Shown here one piece after another: positions 282 to 7,649 of a DNA stretch of 64,000 nt. Below the pieces are notes generated by a model, which saw nothing but the letters and a program-made list of their open reading frames with translations, was not told where the DNA came from and did no database searches. Within the stretch, counting starts at the first letter, position 1. Each line of letters opens with the position of its first letter. The position numbers and the translations under genes are program-made. Origin of the DNA: Alphaproteobacteria bacterium (GTDB taxonomy: Bacteria > Pseudomonadota > Alphaproteobacteria > UBA828); NCBI GenBank assembly GCA_963422645.2, contig CAXXVO010000018.1, forward strand, positions 32,001 through 96,000, in the 5' to 3' direction.

Positions 282-1932
282 GACGCCCTGAACGCAAAAG
301 GCAACCTTCGCCTTCGGTGCTGTGGTTGCCGGGTTTCGACGGGTCTGGACCGCCGCCTGGCGATCCCGAGATTGGGATTGAATGGCGAATGGTGATTTTG
401 TCCTCGGTGACCAACACCTCCTTCACGATGAGCCGGACGATGCGCTGCCGTTCGGCGATGTCCAGGGTTTCGGCGGACGAGTGCAGCCGCGCCAGAAAGC
501 CGGTCAGCGTCTCGGCGAGCCGGAGATAGGTCTCGCGATCCTTCGCCCGATCGACGGTGGATTGCAGTTCGCGATTCAGAGCCTGATCCTGACGACGGAG
601 CTCGGGCGTTCTGTCGCGCAGTTCATCGATTGTAATCAACTCCTCCTGATAGGCGTTGACCAGGCGGTCGATGCTTTTTCGGACCCGGATCAGACGGTGC
701 CGCAGGTCGTTCTCGCGCTGCTGGTTTGGATCGGAAGCGCGGGCCGCCTGTAGTCGCCGGTCGATCTCGGCGCCGATCAGTGCTGGATCCTCGAGCAGGC
801 GGACCACTTCGCCCCAGACGACGTCATCGAGCAAGTCCTGGCGCACCGGCCGACTGTCGCACACCGGTCCGTTGAGATGGCGCCAAGAGTCAGAACCCAG
901 GCAGCGATAATAGGAGATCTTGCGGGCACTCGTCTGGGCCGATGTGCGAGACAGCGCGTAGCCGCATTTGCCGCACGAGACCAGTCCCTGGAGCACGCTG
1001 GGCGTCTTCGTGCGACGCGGCGCGTGGATCTTGTTCATCTCCAGCCGCTCTTCGGCCAGGGCGAAGGTCTCTTCGCTGACGATCGCCGGCACCGGGATCT
1101 CGATCCACTCCTCACGCGGTTTTTCGTGACCGCCGGTCGTGCCGCTGGCCACGCCGCGGCGCAGGCGCAGAGGACGTGTCACACATTTACGCGGCATCTG
1201 GCGGGTCTTGCCGAAACAGGCTTTCCCCTTGTACGCCGGATTGCGGAGCATCGCCCACACCGTCGAGCGTTCCCAGCGCGAGCGCCCGGTGGAGGTGGGT
1301 ACCGCGCGCTCATTGAGCCTGCAGGTGATCGCGCCGATGCTCATGTGATCGCAGGTGTAGCAGCGGTAAACCTCGCGAACCACCGACGCCTGCGGCTCGA
1401 CGATTTCGTAGAACGCATCGCTGTCCGGGGTTTTCTTGTGGTAGCGGTAGCCATAGGGCGCGCCGCCGAGGACGGCGATTTCGCCGCGTCGCGCCCGATG
1501 TCGCTTGCCGCGCCGGGAACGCTCCAGGATTTGCGCGCGCTCGTATTCCGCAATCATGCCCTGGAACTGGACGAGCAGATGATCTTCCGGGGTTTCCATC
1601 GACGGCGCTCTCAAGAACACGGTCTCGACGCCCTGACGGGCCAGCTCCTCGATGATCAGAACCTGGTAGGCATAGCGCCGGCTCATACGGTCCGGGGCAT
1701 GGACCAGCACCGTGTCGATGCGCCCTTCCGCGGCGAGATCCCTGACCCGCTCGAGCCCCGGGCGTTCGAGAACGGCGCCGGTATAGCCGTCATCTTCAAT
1801 GATCATGTCGGGCGCGACGCTGTAACCGTGGTCCTCGGCGTAGGCGATCAGGGCCTCGGTCTGGCTCGCTATCGTGTTGTCATCTCTCTGCCGCTCGCCG
1901 GAGACCCGCGCGTAAATGGCTGCGATCTTCAT
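282..1932 (-). CDS. Large serine recombinase (resolvase + recombinase + zinc-ribbon domains), about 550 aa inside the element; no stop codon before the window edge
   Basis: Hand translation from ATG 1932 (RBS AGGAG): MKIAAIYARVSGERQ (catalytic YARVS), ERPGLE, PDRMSR, QGMIAEYERAQILERSRRGK, GGAPYGY, LRNPAYKG, CGKCG...YYRC...C, ending ITIRHSIP...CLLRSGR at the element end. Absent from the ORF track because the frame stays open to position 1. Confidence 0.93.
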
Positions 1933-2130
1933 GGTCGTCTCCTATGTCCTGCGCTCGGACCGGGATTTGCCGTGAAACAGATTCTGGCGAGGGACGCGCG
2001 GTGACGCTCCAACCCCGAGGTCACGGCGTTGGCTGAGACCGCCAGGGTCGGCGCGGCGGAGACGAGCGGTGGACTTCCCCGATGTGGTCCGAAGCGGTCC
2101 CGCGTAGCCGGCTGACGAGATGCGGGCCGC

Positions 2131-3411
2131 TCAGGCGGCCTTGAGTTCCGCGCCTACGGGCTCGATGTAGCCGTAGCGGCGGAGCATGCGGATCCACCGA
2201 GGAGCGTTGCGCTTGACCATCAGAGCGTCGTAGTCGGCCGTGCGGTCGTAGTAGGGCCTGCCGGTCTTGAGCACCACATAGATGATGCGCAGCATCTTGT
2301 GAGCGCCGGCGACGATGGCGCGCTTGTAGCCGCGCCGGGCGGCGAGGGCGCGGTGATGAGCCTCGAACTGGCACCCCTTGGTTCGGGCCGCGCCGTGGGC
2401 ACACTCGACGAGGCAGGCGCGCAGGGTCTTGGAGCCCATGCGGGTGCGTGCGTTGCGGCGCTTGCCCCCGCTCTCGTTGTTGCCGGGGCAGAGCCCGGCC
2501 CAGGCGGCGAAGTGCTCCTTGGAGGCGAACACGCCGATGTCGGGGCCGATCTCGATGAGGATGGTCGAGGCGGCGGTGCGGTCGATGCCGGGGATGGTGG
2601 TCAGCAGACGGAGCTGCTCCTCCCACGGTGTCATCTGCCCGTCGATCTTCCTGGTGTAGGACGCGATGCGCGCCTCAAGCGCGTCATGCTCCTCCAGCAG
2701 GTCGTTGAGCATGAAGCGGTCGTTGTCGCCCAGGCTCAGGGTGAGCGCCTCGCCGAGCCCCTCCAGCTTGTTCGCAACGTGGCTGGTGAGCGAGGCGAGG
2801 ATGACCTCGCGCGCCGTCCCCTGCGCCAGGCCGTCGAGGATCTTCCGGCCGTTGACGCCGAAGACGTCGGAGAGGATGCCGCCGATGCGCGCACCGGCGC
2901 GGTCGATGATCTTCTGCACGCGGTTGCGCACGGCGGAGCGCTGCCTGACCAGGACGCGGCGCTGGCGGCTCAGTGCGCGCAGCTCCCGGAACGGCTCAGG
3001 CGGAACGTGGGAAGGCGTGCAGAGCCCGAACTGGCACACGCAGGCCAGCCACACGCTGTCCGCCACGTCGGTCTTGCGCCCCTTCAACTGCTTCACCTGA
3101 CGCGCATGCACCAGGATCGCCTCGAGCCCGGCCGCCTCCAGGGCCGCGAAGGGCGCCTGCCAGTAGACCCCGGTCCCTTCCATCACCGCAGCCTCGACGC
3201 CGTGACCGGTCAGCCACGCGACCATCTCCTCCAGACCGCTCGGCAGCGTGCCGAAGCAGCGCGTCTCCACCACCGGCTCACCCTCGCCCTCACAGAGGCG
3301 AACCGTCGCGGTGATCTCCATCTTGTGCACGTCCAGACCCGCCGCGCGCGGCCGGACGACGTGCAAGCCTTCCGTCTTCATCGCCTTCCTCCTCATTTGC
3401 GCTCTCGCCAC
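2131..3411 (-). CDS. IS110-family DEDD transposase/recombinase (start may be ATG 3381)
   Basis: GLDVHK, VMEGTGVYW, KTDVADS (DEDD tetrad), TIPGI, AWAGLCPGNNESGG (catalytic Ser region). Confidence 0.95.
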   Translation of the reverse strand: MARAQMRRKAMKTEGLHVVRPRAAGLDVHKMEITATVRLCEGEGEPVVETRCFGTLPSGLEEMVAWLTGHGVEAAVMEGTGVYWQAPFAALEAAGLEAILVHARQVKQLKGRKTDVADSVWLACVCQFGLCTPSHVPPEPFRELRALSRQRRVLVRQRSAVRNRVQKIIDRAGARIGGILSDVFGVNGRKILDGLAQGTAREVILASLTSHVANKLEGLGEALTLSLGDNDRFMLNDLLEEHDALEARIASYTRKIDGQMTPWEEQLRLLTTIPGIDRTAASTILIEIGPDIGVFASKEHFAAWAGLCPGNNESGGKRRNARTRMGSKTLRACLVECAHGAARTKGCQFEAHHRALAARRGYKRAIVAGAHKMLRIIYVVLKTGRPYYDRTADYDALMVKRNAPRWIRMLRRYGYIEPVGAELKAA

Positions 3412-3700
3412 GGCGGCGTACGATCACGCCGTGGCATCGCCACGGTGGAGGCGGGGACAGCGGTCGGAAGAACACGCATCCGACGAGCGGGTGCGGTGCA
3501 ATTTGCCGCGCGTCCACGGCCACGGGCCGGGTACAATACGGGGTGCGGAGCCGGCCGCCGGAAGCAGTTTTGTCATCGGGAACTACGTCACCGATATAAC
3601 GACGCTCACACGTCCCCACCTCCGCCAATACCCATCCTGACACGGCAAATGGGTGCAAGCGCAAGGAAAACGTCAGCCGAACCGCTCCTGTTTCATGCCA
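3412..3700 (-). ncRNA. Candidate IS110 bridge/seek RNA region
   Basis: About 290-bp non-coding end upstream of the transposase, with short matches to the element ends (CACGGCAAAT 3641-3650 = reverse complement of 1965-1974; GCCACGGG 3519-3526). Function inferred from the family. Confidence 0.45.
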
Positions 3701-3854
3701 CGGGGTGGCTCAGAACCGCGGGGACCATGACTGTTTTGTGAGTTTGATCGGGCACCAGGATCGCGTAGGCGTTGTGGAGTTTGGCGTCGAGCAGACGATC
3801 GAAGGCATAAGCGAGGTGAACCGTGGGCCGAGCGCCCAAGCGACGTTCAGCCAT
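3701..3854 (-). pseudogene. Small ORF (61 aa once the IS110 is removed) coupled to the LSR; possible directionality or accessory factor
   Basis: MAERRLGARPTVHLAYAFDRLLDAKLHNAYAILVPDQ...SHP, then the IS110, then GPSAGHRRRP*; the restored TGA overlaps the LSR ATG (ATGA at 1929-1932). Confidence 0.65.
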
Positions 3855-4176
3855 GCCGATCCGCGTCCGATAAAAAGCGTCTCAGCGCCCGCGCGACGAT
3901 CTCCCCGATGGAGTGGCCGCTGCTCCTGGCGTGGGCTCGCAAGGTCTCCGCCAGAGTGCCTGGAATCTTGATGGTGATCGGGATCAGCTCTTCGGTCGGC
4001 TCGGCCGGCTGGCCCATGGCGCGCGCGTCCTGGACGTAGCGATAGGACTGACGCTGCGACAGCCCGAAGCGCTGCGACAGCCGTGCCACGGCTTCGCTCG
4101 CCGTGGCGCCCTGGGCGAGCAGCGTGTAGGCGGCATTGAGCCGCTCGACCTTCTGGGATCTTGTTGACCGGATCAT
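3847..4176 (-). CDS. Small DNA-binding protein: N-terminal HTH-like and C-terminal ribbon-helix-helix-like
   Basis: 109 aa; LSQRFGLSQRQSYRYV (HTH-like) and ITIKIPGTLAETLRAHARSSGHSIGEIVARAL (RHH pattern); overlaps the next ORF by 8 nt. Confidence 0.7.
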   Translation of the reverse strand: MIRSTRSQKVERLNAAYTLLAQGATASEAVARLSQRFGLSQRQSYRYVQDARAMGQPAEPTEELIPITIKIPGTLAETLRAHARSSGHSIGEIVARALRRFLSDADRHG

Positions 4177-4184
4177 TTGCCATA

Positions 4185-4217
4185 AGAATATTACCGTTTG
4201 CGGCGCAAGTCAGTCAA
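4185..4217 (-). promoter_or_regulatory. Putative sigma70 promoter for the LSR operon, possibly leaderless
   Basis: Minus strand TTGACTGACT-N17-TATTCT, with the ATG at 4176 eight nt after the -10. Confidence 0.45.
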
Positions 4218-4283
4218 GGGACGGTCTCGCCATTCCACAATCTGACGTTCGAAGCGGAAGTTACCTTTTGCGTTCAGGGCGTC

Positions 4284-4397
4284 AGCTTCGCCATCCTGCG
4301 CAGCGTCATCACCACCGCCAGAAAGCAGGGCTGGAATATCATCGAAGCCCTGACCAGCCCATCGGATCGGCTCATCGCCACCGTCAAGTGCGCGTAA
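4284..4397 (+). pseudogene. IS66 TnpC (variant A) extreme C-terminus
   Basis: SFAILRSVITTARKQGWNIIEAL... matches the C-termini of the other IS66 TnpCs here. Confidence 0.88.
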
Positions 4398-4665
4398 GCT
4401 CACCTGGCACGGGTTCTCCAACAGCGGAGCCATTCTCATAAACGATCATGGTCGACGCCGTGCTGGACCACCCCATAGAATGAAAATCGGTGCCCGTCGC
4501 GCGGGCGGACTTCGGGCCACATCGGGGTAGCTTACCGGTCGCAGTCCGCAAGAGGGGCATCGTGAGCTGTGAAACCCGGCGACCCCAGAGGAGCACACGG
4601 GCGTCGCGTGGGTAGCGTTGTGCCGAATCCCAGAGAATTTTCACAGCAAGAACCTGGGCAGTTAC
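4398..4665 (+). mobile_element. IS66 variant A right end (TIR ACCTGGGCAGTTAC), inserted in the 5' end of res
   Basis: TIR at 4652-4665 (reverse complement GTAACTGCCCAGGT); 4481-4665 recurs near-identically at 14419-14602. Confidence 0.88.
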
Positions 4666-7649
4666 ATCCTTTGCAGCACTGGGAGCTTGACGAGAGCGGC
4701 CAGCCCACCAACCGCATCCTCGAGCTGCGGCGTCAGGTCTCGTTCATCACGCCGATCCCCAAGCCAAAGAAGAGCAAGGGGTCGCAACAGACGCTGATCT
4801 TCGACGAGGAAGCACAGCGGGTCGCGACCGAAGGCCAGCAATACGAGCTGGCGCAGACGATCAACAGCGTACGGAATGCCGTCGATCGCTGGCGGGAGCT
4901 GCCAGATCAAGGACAGTGGCGCGTGACACCGGAGACGGCCCGGCTGCTGCACCACTGGCGCCACCACAGGTTCAACGATATCCGCCCTTTCTTCTGCCAG
5001 GTCGAGGCGGTGGAGACGGCGATTTGGCTAACCGAGGTCGCACCCCAGATCGCCGCAGGACGCCGGTTCCTCGAACACCTGGACAACGCGAACAAGGAAG
5101 CCAATCCGGCGCTCTCCAGGTTGGCGCTGAAGCTCGCCACCGGCGCAGGCAAGACCACCGTGATGGCCATGCTCATCGCATGGCAGACGATCAACGCGGT
5201 GCGCCGCCCGAACAGCAGGCGCTTCACGCGGGGCTTCCTGATCGTCACTCCCGGCATCACCATCAAGGACCGGCTCCGGGTGCTCCAGCCCAACGACCCG
5301 GACAGCTACTACCAGAGCCGTGAGCTGGTACCGGGCGACATGCTGGGCGATCTCGAACGAGCGAAGATCGTCATCACCAACTTCCATGCCTTCAAGCGCC
5401 GCGAAACGATGGAGGTCTCCAAGGGCGGCCGGGCTCTGCTCCAGGGTCGCGGTCCCGATATAAGGTCGACCGAGAGCGAAGGACAGATGCTTCAGCGGGT
5501 CATGCCCGAGATCATGGGCATGAAGAACGTGCTCGCGCTGAACGACGAGGCGCACCACTGCTATCGCGAGAAGCCCGGCGAGGACGACGAAGGCAACCTG
5601 AAGGGCGAGGACCGCAAGGAAGCCGAGAAGAACCGCGAAGCCGCGAGGCTGTGGATTTCCGGGTTGGAGGCGGTGGGTCAGAAGCTCGGCCTCACCCGCG
5701 TGATCGACCTCTCGGCGACGCCCTTCTTCCTGCGCGGCTCGGGCTACGCGGAAGGGACGCTCTTCCCCTGGACGATGAGCGACTTCTCCCTCATGGACGC
5801 CATCGAGTGCGGAATCGTCAAGCTGCCCCGTGTGCCGGTGGCCGACAACATCCCCGGCGGCGACATGCCGAAGTTCCGCAACCTGTGGGAGCATATCCGC
5901 AAGGACATGCCGAGGAAGGGGCGCGGCAAGACCTCCAATCTCAATCCGCTGCAGATTCCCGTAACTCTGCAGACGGCGCTGGAGGCCCTCTACGGTCACT
6001 ACGAGAAGACCTTCGCTCTCTGGCACGAGGCCGGCATCGAGGTCCCGCCCTGCTTCATCGTGGTCTGCAACAACACCTCGACCTCGAAGCTCATCTACGA
6101 CTACATCGCGGGCTTCCAACGAGAAAACCCGGATGGCTCCACGACTCTGGTCAACGGTCGGCTCAAGCTGTTCCAAAATTTTGACGAGCATGGCACCCCG
6201 CTCGCGCGCCCGCGCACTCTCCTGATCGACAGCGAACAGCTCGAGTCCGGCGATGCGCTCGACAAGAACTTCCGCGCCATGGCGGCGGACGAGATCGAGC
6301 GCTTCCGCTGGGAGATCATCAAGCGCACGGGCGACAAGAAGCGGGCTGATAACCTCTCCGACCAGGACCTGCTGCGTGAGGCGATGAACACTGTTGGCAA
6401 GGAAGGCCGGCTCGGCGGCGCGACCCGCTGCGTCGTCTCGGTCTCGATGCTGACCGAGGGGTGGGACGCAAACACCGTCACCCACGTGCTCGGCGTGCGC
6501 GCCTTCGGCACGCAGCTCCTTTGCGAGCAGGCGGTGGGCCGGGCGCTGCGCCGGCAATCCTACGAGCTGAGCGACGACAACCTGTTTCCCGTCGAGTACG
6601 CCGACGTGCTCGGCATCCCCTTCGACTTCACAGCGAAGCCTGTGGTCGCCCCGCCGCAGAAGCCCACCAACGCGGTCCAGGTCAAAGCGATTACGCCGGA
6701 GCGCGACCGCTGCGAAATCCGTTTTCCGCGTGTCCAGGGTTACCGCGTCGAATTGCCGGAGGAACGATTACAGGCGACCTTCACTGCCGATGACACGCTG
6801 GTTCTGACGCCCGCGCTCGTCGGCCCCTCTCGCACTCGGGTTGAGGGGATTATCGGTGAGGGGGTCGATCTCAACCTGGTTCACACGGGCGATCTGCGCC
6901 GCTCGACCCTGCTGTTTCACCTCACCAAGCGTCTGCTGGAGACGAAGTGGTGCGATCCGGGAGAGGAGCCGAAGCTCCACCTGTTCGGCCAGCTCAAGCG
7001 GGTTGCACGGCAGTGGCTCGACGATCATCTCGTCTGCAAGGGCGGCACGTACCCGGCGCAGCTCATGTATCTGGAGTTGGCGGACATGGCCTGCGAGCGC
7101 ATCACGCGAGGGATCGTCGAGCGGCATGTGGACGAGCGCCCCGTGAAGGCGGTGCTCGATCCCTACAATCCCGCCGGCTCGACGATCCACGTGCGCCTCA
7201 CTACGTCGAAGAAGACGCTGAGGAAGACCGATGCCCGCTATTGCCACATCAACTATGTCGTCTGCGACAGCGACTGGGAGGACCAGTTCTGTTTCGTGGC
7301 CGAGGGGCATCCCCGCGTCCGCGCCTACGTCAAGAACCACGGACTGGGCCTCGAAGTGCCCTATCTGCGCGGTTCCGAGCCGCACAGATACATCCCCGAC
7401 TTCATCGTGCTGGTGGACGACGGCCGTGGCGAGGACGACCCGCTGCACCTGATTGTCGAAGTCAAGGGCTACCGCGGCGAAGACGCGAAGGTGAAGAAGG
7501 CGACCATGGAGACCTATTGGGTGCCGGGCGTGAATGCGCTCGGCACCTTCGGGCGCTGGGCCTTCGCCGAGTTCACGGATGTCTACGAGTTCGAGGCGGG
7601 GTTCGACGCGCTTGTCCGTGGCTTTCTTCTCAAAGATGCTGCCGAATGA
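4666..7649 (+). pseudogene. res: Type III restriction enzyme Res subunit, native start separated by IS66 (an IS-derived in-frame GTG lies at 4569)
   Basis: PFFCQVEA, LATGAGKT (Walker A), NDEAHHCY, DLSATP, MLTEGWDA, C-terminal YIPDF...EVKG PD-(D/E)xK nuclease; begins abruptly after the IS66 TIR. Confidence 0.88.

Follow-up and report, generated by a model that had tools for sequence, protein, structure and literature searches.

A 2.2-kb transposable element driven by a large serine recombinase, with a recombinase gene that appears to cross the joined element ends and with unequal core dinucleotides

How does an element of only ∼2.2 kb move by means of a large serine recombinase (LSR) whose gene runs out of the element, and how did it enter a transposase gene whose reading frame is restored exactly when the element is removed? 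The question is raised by a 64,000-nt stretch of the UBA828 Alphaproteobacteria assembly GCA_963422645.2 (contig CAXXVO010000018.1, positions 32,001–96,000; hereafter the window, to which the coordinates of this locus refer), in which an LSR element splits the transposase gene (tnpC) of an IS66 element. The best explanation of the whole, which we consider probable, is that (i) the element belongs to a family that inserts at a reverse-transcriptase (RT) motif; (ii) its insertion into IS66 was an off-target event; (iii) its LSR gene spans the junction of the joined ends; and (iv) unequal core dinucleotides are tolerated during exchange.

Comparison with the other IS66 copies of the genome revealed an exact insertion. 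All 104 uninterrupted copies read ...GCCGAG-AA-CTTCGCC... (protein ..GAENFAILRS..), in agreement with the empty site GCCGAG-A(A/G)-CTTCGCC that the initial annotation had predicted. In the occupied copy, AA precedes the element and AG follows it; no target base is missing or duplicated, and the AG came with the element. Removing the element together with AG gives the sequence of all 104 empty copies, so the tnpC frame is restored exactly, as had been claimed. No IS66 copy of the genome carries an AG footprint. The proposal that a core mismatch is tolerated is likewise borne out, with AA in the 104 empty sites versus AG at the right junction.

An end search and a flank comparison confirmed the proposed span of the element (282–4283), its 20-bp perfect inverted ends (GACGCCCTGAACGCAAAAGG at 282–301 and the complement at 4264–4283) and the lack of a target-site duplication; over 39 nt the arms at the two ends are 82% complementary. 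Without the nested IS110 the element measures 2,234 bp; the ∼2.26 kb estimated before was slightly too large, and the description as a three-gene unit of insertion-sequence (IS) size holds. Read from the sequence, the joined ends would form a dyad with a 2-nt centre, which supports the predicted 2-nt exchange at dyad ends. All three genes lie on the − strand in the order helix-turn-helix (HTH)/ribbon-helix-helix (RHH) gene, small open reading frame (ORF), LSR, and there are no cargo genes. In intact copies the RHH gene occupies nt 111–437, the small ORF nt 430–636, and the LSR starts at nt 584 and runs for 550 codons plus one base to the element end. Small, present in several copies, bounded by terminal inverted repeats and carrying genes for its own movement only, the element falls under the general definition of an insertion sequence, and a phage-free, IS-sized unit moved by an LSR, as first proposed, is supported. 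The features of the locus are:

1–281, + strand: left part of the IS66 transposase (tnpC) gene (Pfam DDE_Tnp_IS66, E 7.8e-11); its last bases, AA at 280–281, are the target's own core dinucleotide.
282–4283, − strand: complete LSR element, made up of 2,234 bp proper and a nested IS110; the ends are identical in five copies.
282–301, no strand: IRR, the terminal inverted repeat at the LSR end, which doubles as the final codons of the LSR body.
283–1932, − strand: LSR body, 550 codons, stop-free, with the domains Resolvase, Recombinase and Zn_ribbon_recom; the junction codon begins with base 282.
1969–3736, − strand: nested IS110-family element, 1,768 bp (transposase at 2131–3411; Pfam DEDD_Tnp_IS110 and Transposase_20).
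3737–3854, − strand: native portion of the small ORF (orf2), cut by IS110, with the family-conserved motif ..FDRLL..KL.Q.Y.ILVP..
3847–4176, − strand: HTH/RHH DNA-binding protein, 109 aa (Pfam RHH_1; AlphaFold2 model), found in the same place in 42 distinct related sequences.
4188–4217, − strand: TTGACT-18-TAATAT, a promoter-like site ahead of the RHH gene; the TAA stop of the tail lies in its −10 box.
4194–4283, − strand: tail of 30 codons (DALNAKGNFRFERQIVEWRDRPLTDLRRKR), with its stop at 4191–4193; it continues the LSR frame solely across joined ends.
4264–4283, no strand: IRL, the terminal inverted repeat at the HTH end, complement of IRR.
4284–4285, no strand: AG, two bases brought by the element, absent from every empty IS66 site; copies C6 and C10 likewise have AG at their HTH end.
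4286–4397, + strand: right part of the IS66 transposase gene, contiguous with the left part in 104 copies.

Relatives were collected by scanning one genome per species; 519 of 561 candidate stretches encode LSR relatives, and the best 80 (61–88% identity) were kept. The LSR thus has at least 519 relatives, which by record label span many phyla, with Alpha- and Gammaproteobacteria, Acidobacteriota, Binatia, Gemmatimonadota, Udaeobacter, a metagenome-assembled genome (MAG) of Spirochaetia and others. Many records are contigs of 2.2–2.6 kb, and several genomes hold more than one copy, e.g., five loci in one MAG. Relatives with both ends found share the same inverted ends and mostly span 2,216–2,260 bp (seven span 2,271–2,319 bp), so that homologous LSR loci agree with the element in both ends and size. 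The shared ends, the length of ∼2.2 kb, the order RHH gene, small ORF, LSR, the exit of the LSR frame in phase 1 and a tail of 30–31 codons were found in the window element and in 60–73 related loci.

Among 66 related loci, 64 have the LSR stop outside the element, at a distance of 5 to 1,121 nt, and the remaining two have early stops. The frame left the element in phase 1, that is, with one base over, in 68 of 69 loci, and this one base plus the 2-nt core makes up one codon. Read from the first base of the left end, frame 1 was open for 29–31 codons in 71 of 73 loci, and the other two frames closed early. The phase of the LSR is fixed and no stop is kept inside the element; nothing else than a frame that reads across the joined ends explains both. 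The initial annotation had described an LSR that reads through its own attachment (att) site, and this proved to be a family-wide rule, the frame proceeding into a conserved tail at the opposite end.

The tail has the consensus HAPxAKGNFxFERxIxGWRxxxVLDLRRKx, in which R19, D25 and R27 were invariant among 57 distinct sequences and six more positions nearly so. Pairwise differences in the tail beyond the inverted-repeat core amounted to 0.348, 0.275 and 0.55 at the three codon positions, the information in the tail was 1.04, 1.23 and 0.65 bits, respectively, and its length changed by whole codons only, at three different places. Joined forms were sought with a joined-end pattern, which matched 29 metagenome stretches; 4 of them belong to the LSR-element family and 25 are unrelated palindromes. 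In locus L133 (1–3119) two 80%-identical units lie head to tail, and a continuous 609-aa LSR ORF crosses the junction and ends at the stop of the tail. The frame also crosses the junction in L115 before the contig ends; L123 is frame-broken, and in L128 the junction lies upstream of a unit. The core between the two units of L133 is GC, and the end of a resident copy is apparently usable as a target for another copy.

When the LSR body and the tail were folded as separate chains, the interface score (ipSAE) was 0.41 (0.41, 0.43 and 0.35 in the individual runs), and the best of three controls gave 0.00. The runs agreed in at least 75% of contacts, with a partner pLDDT of at least 51. Of the calibration set, 58 of 80 solved complexes and 2 of 110 mismatched pairs attained the mark; those that did so with values up to 0.60 were 7 of the 80 and both mismatched pairs. 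The two-chain model lends weak support to a predicted contact between body and tail.

Several observations speak against a coding tail. The TAA stop lies inside a conserved TAATAT box that resembles a −10 element, with a conserved TTGA 17–18 nt upstream (nt 91–96 and 72–75, respectively, in 42 related left ends); the pair fits a sigma-70-type promoter, and part of the conservation of the tail, including the fixed stop, could stem from the promoter instead of coding. AlphaFold2 modelled the tail of the joined protein mostly with low confidence (strand 587–595 at a pLDDT of about 65, linker 521–588 below 50). A word-indexed protein search with residues 560–609 of the joined protein returned only the query (1 match among 9 candidates), and its index is too coarse for a variable piece of 50 aa. 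Apart from the tail, no circle junction of this organism was present in the assembled Logan contigs of runs X1, X4, X5 and X17, which drop rare forms, so that this is no sign of absence. Contigs of the RNA run X17 cover most of the element at 90–99% likeness, which is not proof of transcription.

The promoter boxes, the model and the protein search would suit a non-coding function of the conserved 90 nt inside the left end, namely as the outer arm of the att site and the promoter of the operon, with the LSR stop supplied by the flank and the tail a mere accident of frame; the first 25 nt are, moreover, the inverted repeat itself. We consider this unlikely. Third codon positions are about twice as variable as second ones in the stretch from the repeat to the promoter, and neither the whole-codon length changes at three places nor the early stops in the other two frames speak for a non-coding stretch. 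The end phase of the LSR, fixed in 68 of 69 loci with no member keeping a stop inside the element, and the continuous ORF of the natural tandem also stand against it.

Insertion sites in the family were non-random. Of 60 distinct sites, 49 could be oriented on DNA that encodes the motif PQGG-x-x/SP-LLAN of group II intron RTs, 28 one way and 21 the other. These canonical sites show one dinucleotide, mostly AT, on both sides of the element. The window copy, which lies in IS66 tnpC, is not inserted at this motif; copy C8a, one side of copy C8b and a copy in genome G004 are. C8a splits RVT_1 between profile positions 124 and 125, with the GIIM (maturase) domain downstream, and C8b adjoins the N-terminal half of a second RT. 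The G004 copy lies in an RT gene; an IS66-like nature of its flank was ruled out by translation, which revealed a canonical RT site. The LSR of this 95%-identical copy (L031:4665 onwards, G004:C1) matches in two overlapping pieces, which suggests a frameshift, and on the HTH side the copy breaks off at position 1,961 of the 2,234-bp element, with unrelated DNA beyond.

A RefSeq plasmid of Bradyrhizobium elkanii annotates the arrangement generically, as RT fragment, CopG-family protein, 'recombinase family protein' and RT fragment. Full-text literature searches, which do not cover ISfinder and paper supplements, returned no published description of the LSR-element family. The term 'reverse transcriptase' has 0 occurrences in the main text of Durrant et al., 2022 (PMC10083194), whose supplements list attB sites and may hold such sites.

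In the 5.9-Mb assembly the terminal 20-mer occurs five times forward and five times in reverse (0 and 0 for a reversed control pattern), which gives five copies:

C6: 2,234 bp, 0 IS110 units inside.
C8a: 2,234 bp, 0 IS110 units inside.
C19 (the window copy): 4,002 bp, 1 IS110 unit inside.
C8b: 5,771 bp, 2 IS110 units inside.
C10: 7,539 bp, 3 IS110 units inside.

The intact copies C6 and C8a differ at 2 of 2,234 bases, and the LSR frame is intact in all five copies.

Two further insertions could be compared with an uninterrupted target. Copy C6 splits a Xan_ur_permease gene, with the junctions GG, element, AG. This site is empty in run X4: one contig joins the flanks over a 2,236-nt skip with 0 mismatches and reads GG, at a depth of 5.56 versus 51.2 for the element contig of the same run. 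The halves of a single Na/Pi-cotransporter gene lie beside different copies, one as the left flank of C10 (G000:C10:43073) and one as the HTH-side flank of C8b (G000:C8:727380). The gene is continuous in three genomes of the genus and has TG at the site; of the junctions, the LSR end carries TG and the HTH end AT. In 3 of 3 checked cases the LSR end had the target dinucleotide and the HTH end AG or AT, the two dinucleotides differing at one or both bases.

Identical core dinucleotides in both partners, as LSR exchange is taken to demand, were thus not found (AA vs. AG, GG vs. AG, TG vs. AT). The sequences are consistent with a 2-nt core exchange at dyad sites, and canonical sites have AT on both sides, with the RT frame restored by keeping one AT. 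Family-wide, the junction dinucleotides were unequal at 26 of 51 well-defined sites under a stricter filter. Before that filter, no side bias was detected among the 27 of 60 sites with unequal dinucleotides (AT upstream only at 10, downstream only at 9). A rule that ties the choice of the junction retaining the target dinucleotide to where the mismatch lies was dropped, because the mismatch positions at the IS66 and permease sites differ and the layout is the same.

Might the unequal dinucleotides derive from recombination between copies that swapped their flanks, or from later point mutation, instead of a mismatch-tolerant exchange? Tolerance is burdened by two points: in two of the five copies the flanks on either side belong to different genes, so that the count of 26 of 51 may partly reflect flank swapping, and a base-paired 2-nt overhang does not easily accommodate the double mismatch (TG vs. 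AT). The cotransporter halves beside different copies on C10 and C8 (a swap or a mis-join) and the several foreign loci that lie between two like RT halves are what flank swapping predicts. The window copy, however, has both flanks from one IS66 gene and is the sole occupied copy of 105; both flanks of C6 come from one permease gene whose empty form is present in run X4; and three copies share the AG at the HTH end beside three different target dinucleotides. We regard an origin of the unequal dinucleotides by swapping or mutation as quite improbable.

Some observations on the copies and their flanks are added here. C8b is bordered on its other side by half an RT gene, and the split cotransporter halves point to recombination between element copies or to an assembly mis-join through the repeat. 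Two PQGG-side RT halves flank L043, L072, L074 and L086, and two SP-side halves flank L051 and L060; paired like RT halves in inverted orientation are the product that an inversion between two oppositely inserted copies would produce. In run X4, which is older and has the same organism label (aligned to L021:1400–3833), the element stands at ∼9× the depth of its flank, and one additional HTH-end flank was found that is absent from the present assembly.

The off-target nature of the IS66 insertion was assessed with a weight matrix from 49 RT sites (training median 43.3, minimum −1.9), scored over 11.8 million genome positions. The canonical site of C8a scored 43.5. The IS66 site scored −0.2, a value reached by 4.0e-5 of genome positions (475, which should include the 104 IS66 copies), and the permease site of C6 scored −5.3, reached by 1.8e-4. 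The IS66 site resembles the left half of the canonical site. No genome position reached a score of 20, and the only RVT_1 matches were three fragments beside C8a and C8b; therefore, the genome has no free canonical site. Only 1 of 105 IS66 copies is occupied by the element.

The initial annotation had suggested a relaxed choice of attB, that is, a promiscuous LSR mini-transposon for which IS66 is an ordinary target. Three of the five copies in this genome lie outside RT genes, and junction dinucleotides differ at half of the well-defined sites (the 26 of 51 given above), both as expected from a truly relaxed choice. The flank pair of C10 scored −47.6, which is background level; as a third off-target site, at the right flank of C10, it is at odds with insertion at look-alike sites, and this score is uninformative because the flank pair is a chimera. 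Such promiscuity is improbable in our view: 49 of 60 distinct sites in other genomes are insertions into one RT motif, likeness to this motif places the IS66 and permease sites in the top 4e-5 and 1.8e-4 of the genome, and a genome with no vacant canonical site has a single occupied IS66 copy among 105. The suggestion was thus not upheld. As judged from the sequences, the family is site-specific for one RT motif, the LSR has measurable off-target activity, and the insertions into IS66 and the permease gene appear to be rare look-alike sites. With no free canonical site at hand, the element would have moved to such look-alikes, and 105 identical IS66 copies would have given it many chances.

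The domains of the LSR agree with its proposed role. The resolvase-type catalytic domain at the N terminus, which holds the active-site serine (PF00239, E 7.4e-32), covers residues 4–151, with Y7, A8, R9, V10 and S11 invariant in 52 relatives, and it is accompanied by a Recombinase domain (PF07508, E 3.4e-20) and a zinc ribbon (PF13408, E 4.3e-10; C320, C323, C344 and C358 invariant). The AlphaFold2 model of a relative has long helices at 383–489, as in a coiled-coil insert. SPbeta SprA/YokA is the closest solved relative by sequence (9dxh_A, E 5.6e-12), and the catalytic domain of TnpX is a distant match (2mhc_A, E 3.2e-5). No NCBIfam model reached its cut-off (the IS607 model NF033518 gave 34.7 bits against a cut-off of 110), and DUF4368 was not matched in the LSR at E up to 0.01.

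The two small genes are conserved beside homologous LSRs, as anticipated, with the RHH gene at the same offset in the 42 distinct sequences. Its product matches RHH_1 just below the cut-off (E 6e-4, 20.1 bits vs. 20.5), and the AlphaFold2 model (pLDDT 89) has an N-terminal three-helix HTH and a C-terminal RHH. The model resembles the Arc repressor (TM 0.73 on target); a Foldseek search of the PDB gave 0 matches at E up to 0.001, and the likeness is at the level of the domain only. A probable function of the protein is control of the promoter that lies directly inside the left end. The small ORF starts at 3854 and overlaps the RHH gene, as first described; the overlap is 8 nt (ATGGCTGA) instead of ATGA, and the product in intact copies has 68 aa instead of 61. 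In the family it ranges from 46 to 106 aa (mostly about 90–105) around the conserved core ..FDRLL..KL.Q.Y.ILVP.., and it fell into unnamed clusters only in the ESM Atlas and into 0 NCBIfam families. The initial annotation had named its product as a possible directionality factor.

In the window the small ORF is interrupted by the nested IS110, 34 nt upstream of the LSR start, with borders that are ambiguous by a 3-nt TTT; the insertion stands between the LSR and the promoter-like site of the left end. The IS110-family element has 47 full-length 1,768-bp copies in the genome, with a target of about (A/C)TTT-TGT, and it is inserted at the identical spot in 3 of the 5 LSR elements. It also forms head-to-tail arrays of 2 to 5 units (C11 five, C10 three, C16 three), with further copies on contigs C5 and C8; its end (..CTGTTT) together with its own start recreates the target, which is the likely reason for the arrays. 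At least 105 copies of the IS66 element, without a single difference in the 300 bases compared, amount to a very large recent expansion. Next to the IS66 remnant, on its right, begins a 1,026-aa ORF (4569–7649, + strand) with helicase-like ATP-binding motifs recognized by eye.

For an RT-motif element with a junction-spanning LSR gene, the following course of events is proposed. The LSR would excise the element as a 2,236-bp circle, and the joined ends, a dyad with a 2-nt centre, would constitute attP. The circle would re-insert by a 2-nt staggered exchange between attP and the target; the common AT core is self-complementary, which fits insertion in both orientations. Mismatches of one core base and, in one case, of both would be tolerated, with the heteroduplex junctions fixed by replication or repair, and the junction layout observed would be the product of one strand.

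The full 581-aa LSR would be made from the circle or a tandem only, its stop lying 15–18 nt before the RHH start. An integrated copy would express, from the left-end promoter, the RHH protein, the product of the small ORF and a tail-less LSR with a random extension. The difference between the tail-less and full forms may bias the reaction towards insertion or excision. We propose only tentatively that the 31-residue end available in the circle makes the LSR insertion-competent or blocks re-excision and that the tail-less form favours excision; a directionality factor would then be replaced wholly or partly, and the cores would not need to match.

The element is an LSR-driven transposable element with two unusual properties, a recombinase gene that spans the junction and tolerance of unequal cores. 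It parasitises another mobile element through the DNA of a protein motif that is hard for group II introns to change. Its off-target insertions with exact empty sites (104 for IS66) provide rare data on how an LSR behaves at imperfect sites and with unequal cores.

Among known systems, the mechanism is closest to that of Tn4451 and Tn5397 and the size to that of IS607, and defining features of both are absent here. In the clostridial transposons Tn4451/Tn4453 (TnpX) and Tn5397 (TndX), one LSR excises the transposon as a circle and inserts it, with a 2-nt core and no real target duplication, and the circle junction of Tn4451 forms the tnpX promoter. The element resembles them in its LSR, in the 2-nt core, in the lack of a target duplication and in the relevance of the joined circle ends to recombinase expression. 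Members of the Tn4451/Tn5397 group have 6–21 kb with cargo, a GA core and a recombinase gene that is not split by the att site, and we know of none that aims at RT genes. In contrast, the element described here has 2.2 kb and no cargo, its LSR gene is split by the att site, and the usual target of its family is an RT gene.

With the recombinases of SPbeta (SprA), TP901-1, A118, Bxb1 and phiC31 the LSR shares the order of resolvase catalytic domain, recombinase domain and zinc ribbon with coiled-coil insert. LSRs of phages and integrative and conjugative elements serve large elements, use one attB, need a directionality factor of separate origin to excise and demand the same core dinucleotide in both partners. 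The element differs from these in being a 2.2-kb multi-copy unit and in tolerating unequal cores, and this tolerance bears on genome engineering with LSRs, where core identity counts as a strict rule. The modular core dinucleotides of LSRs are treated in the text of Durrant et al., 2022 (PMC10083194), and there DUF4368 is described as common in the TnpX-like multi-targeting clade (63% of its LSRs). The LSR of the window element, unlike that clade, has no DUF4368 match.

An att site inside a tyrosine integrase gene, so that integration changes the product, is known from IntP/IntX of Myxococcus phage Mx8 and from the integrase of Sulfolobus SSV1. In mycobacteriophage BPs, as outlined in PMC4557955, immunity is integration-dependent and attP lies within the repressor gene. 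As in Mx8, SSV1 and BPs, attP of the LSR element lies in coding sequence, and the free and integrated forms encode different C-termini. Those systems are phages or viruses with tyrosine integrases, whereas here the element is IS-sized, its enzyme is a serine recombinase, and the exchange concerns only the C-terminal 31 residues. With its split recombinase gene, the element hints at a control of direction that needs no separate factor.

IS607, as far as PMC6188088 describes it, is IS-sized, uses a serine recombinase, makes no target duplication and exchanges 2 bp; its TnpA belongs to the small serine recombinases and has its DNA-binding domain at the N terminus, the element has no terminal inverted repeats, and it recognizes an invariant GG target with little other specificity. 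The element of the window does not belong with IS607: it has the architecture of an LSR, 20-bp inverted ends and a long target motif. To our knowledge, IS607, with its small serine recombinase, is the only insertion-sequence family moved by a serine recombinase. An insertion sequence built on a large serine recombinase would be the second design of this kind.

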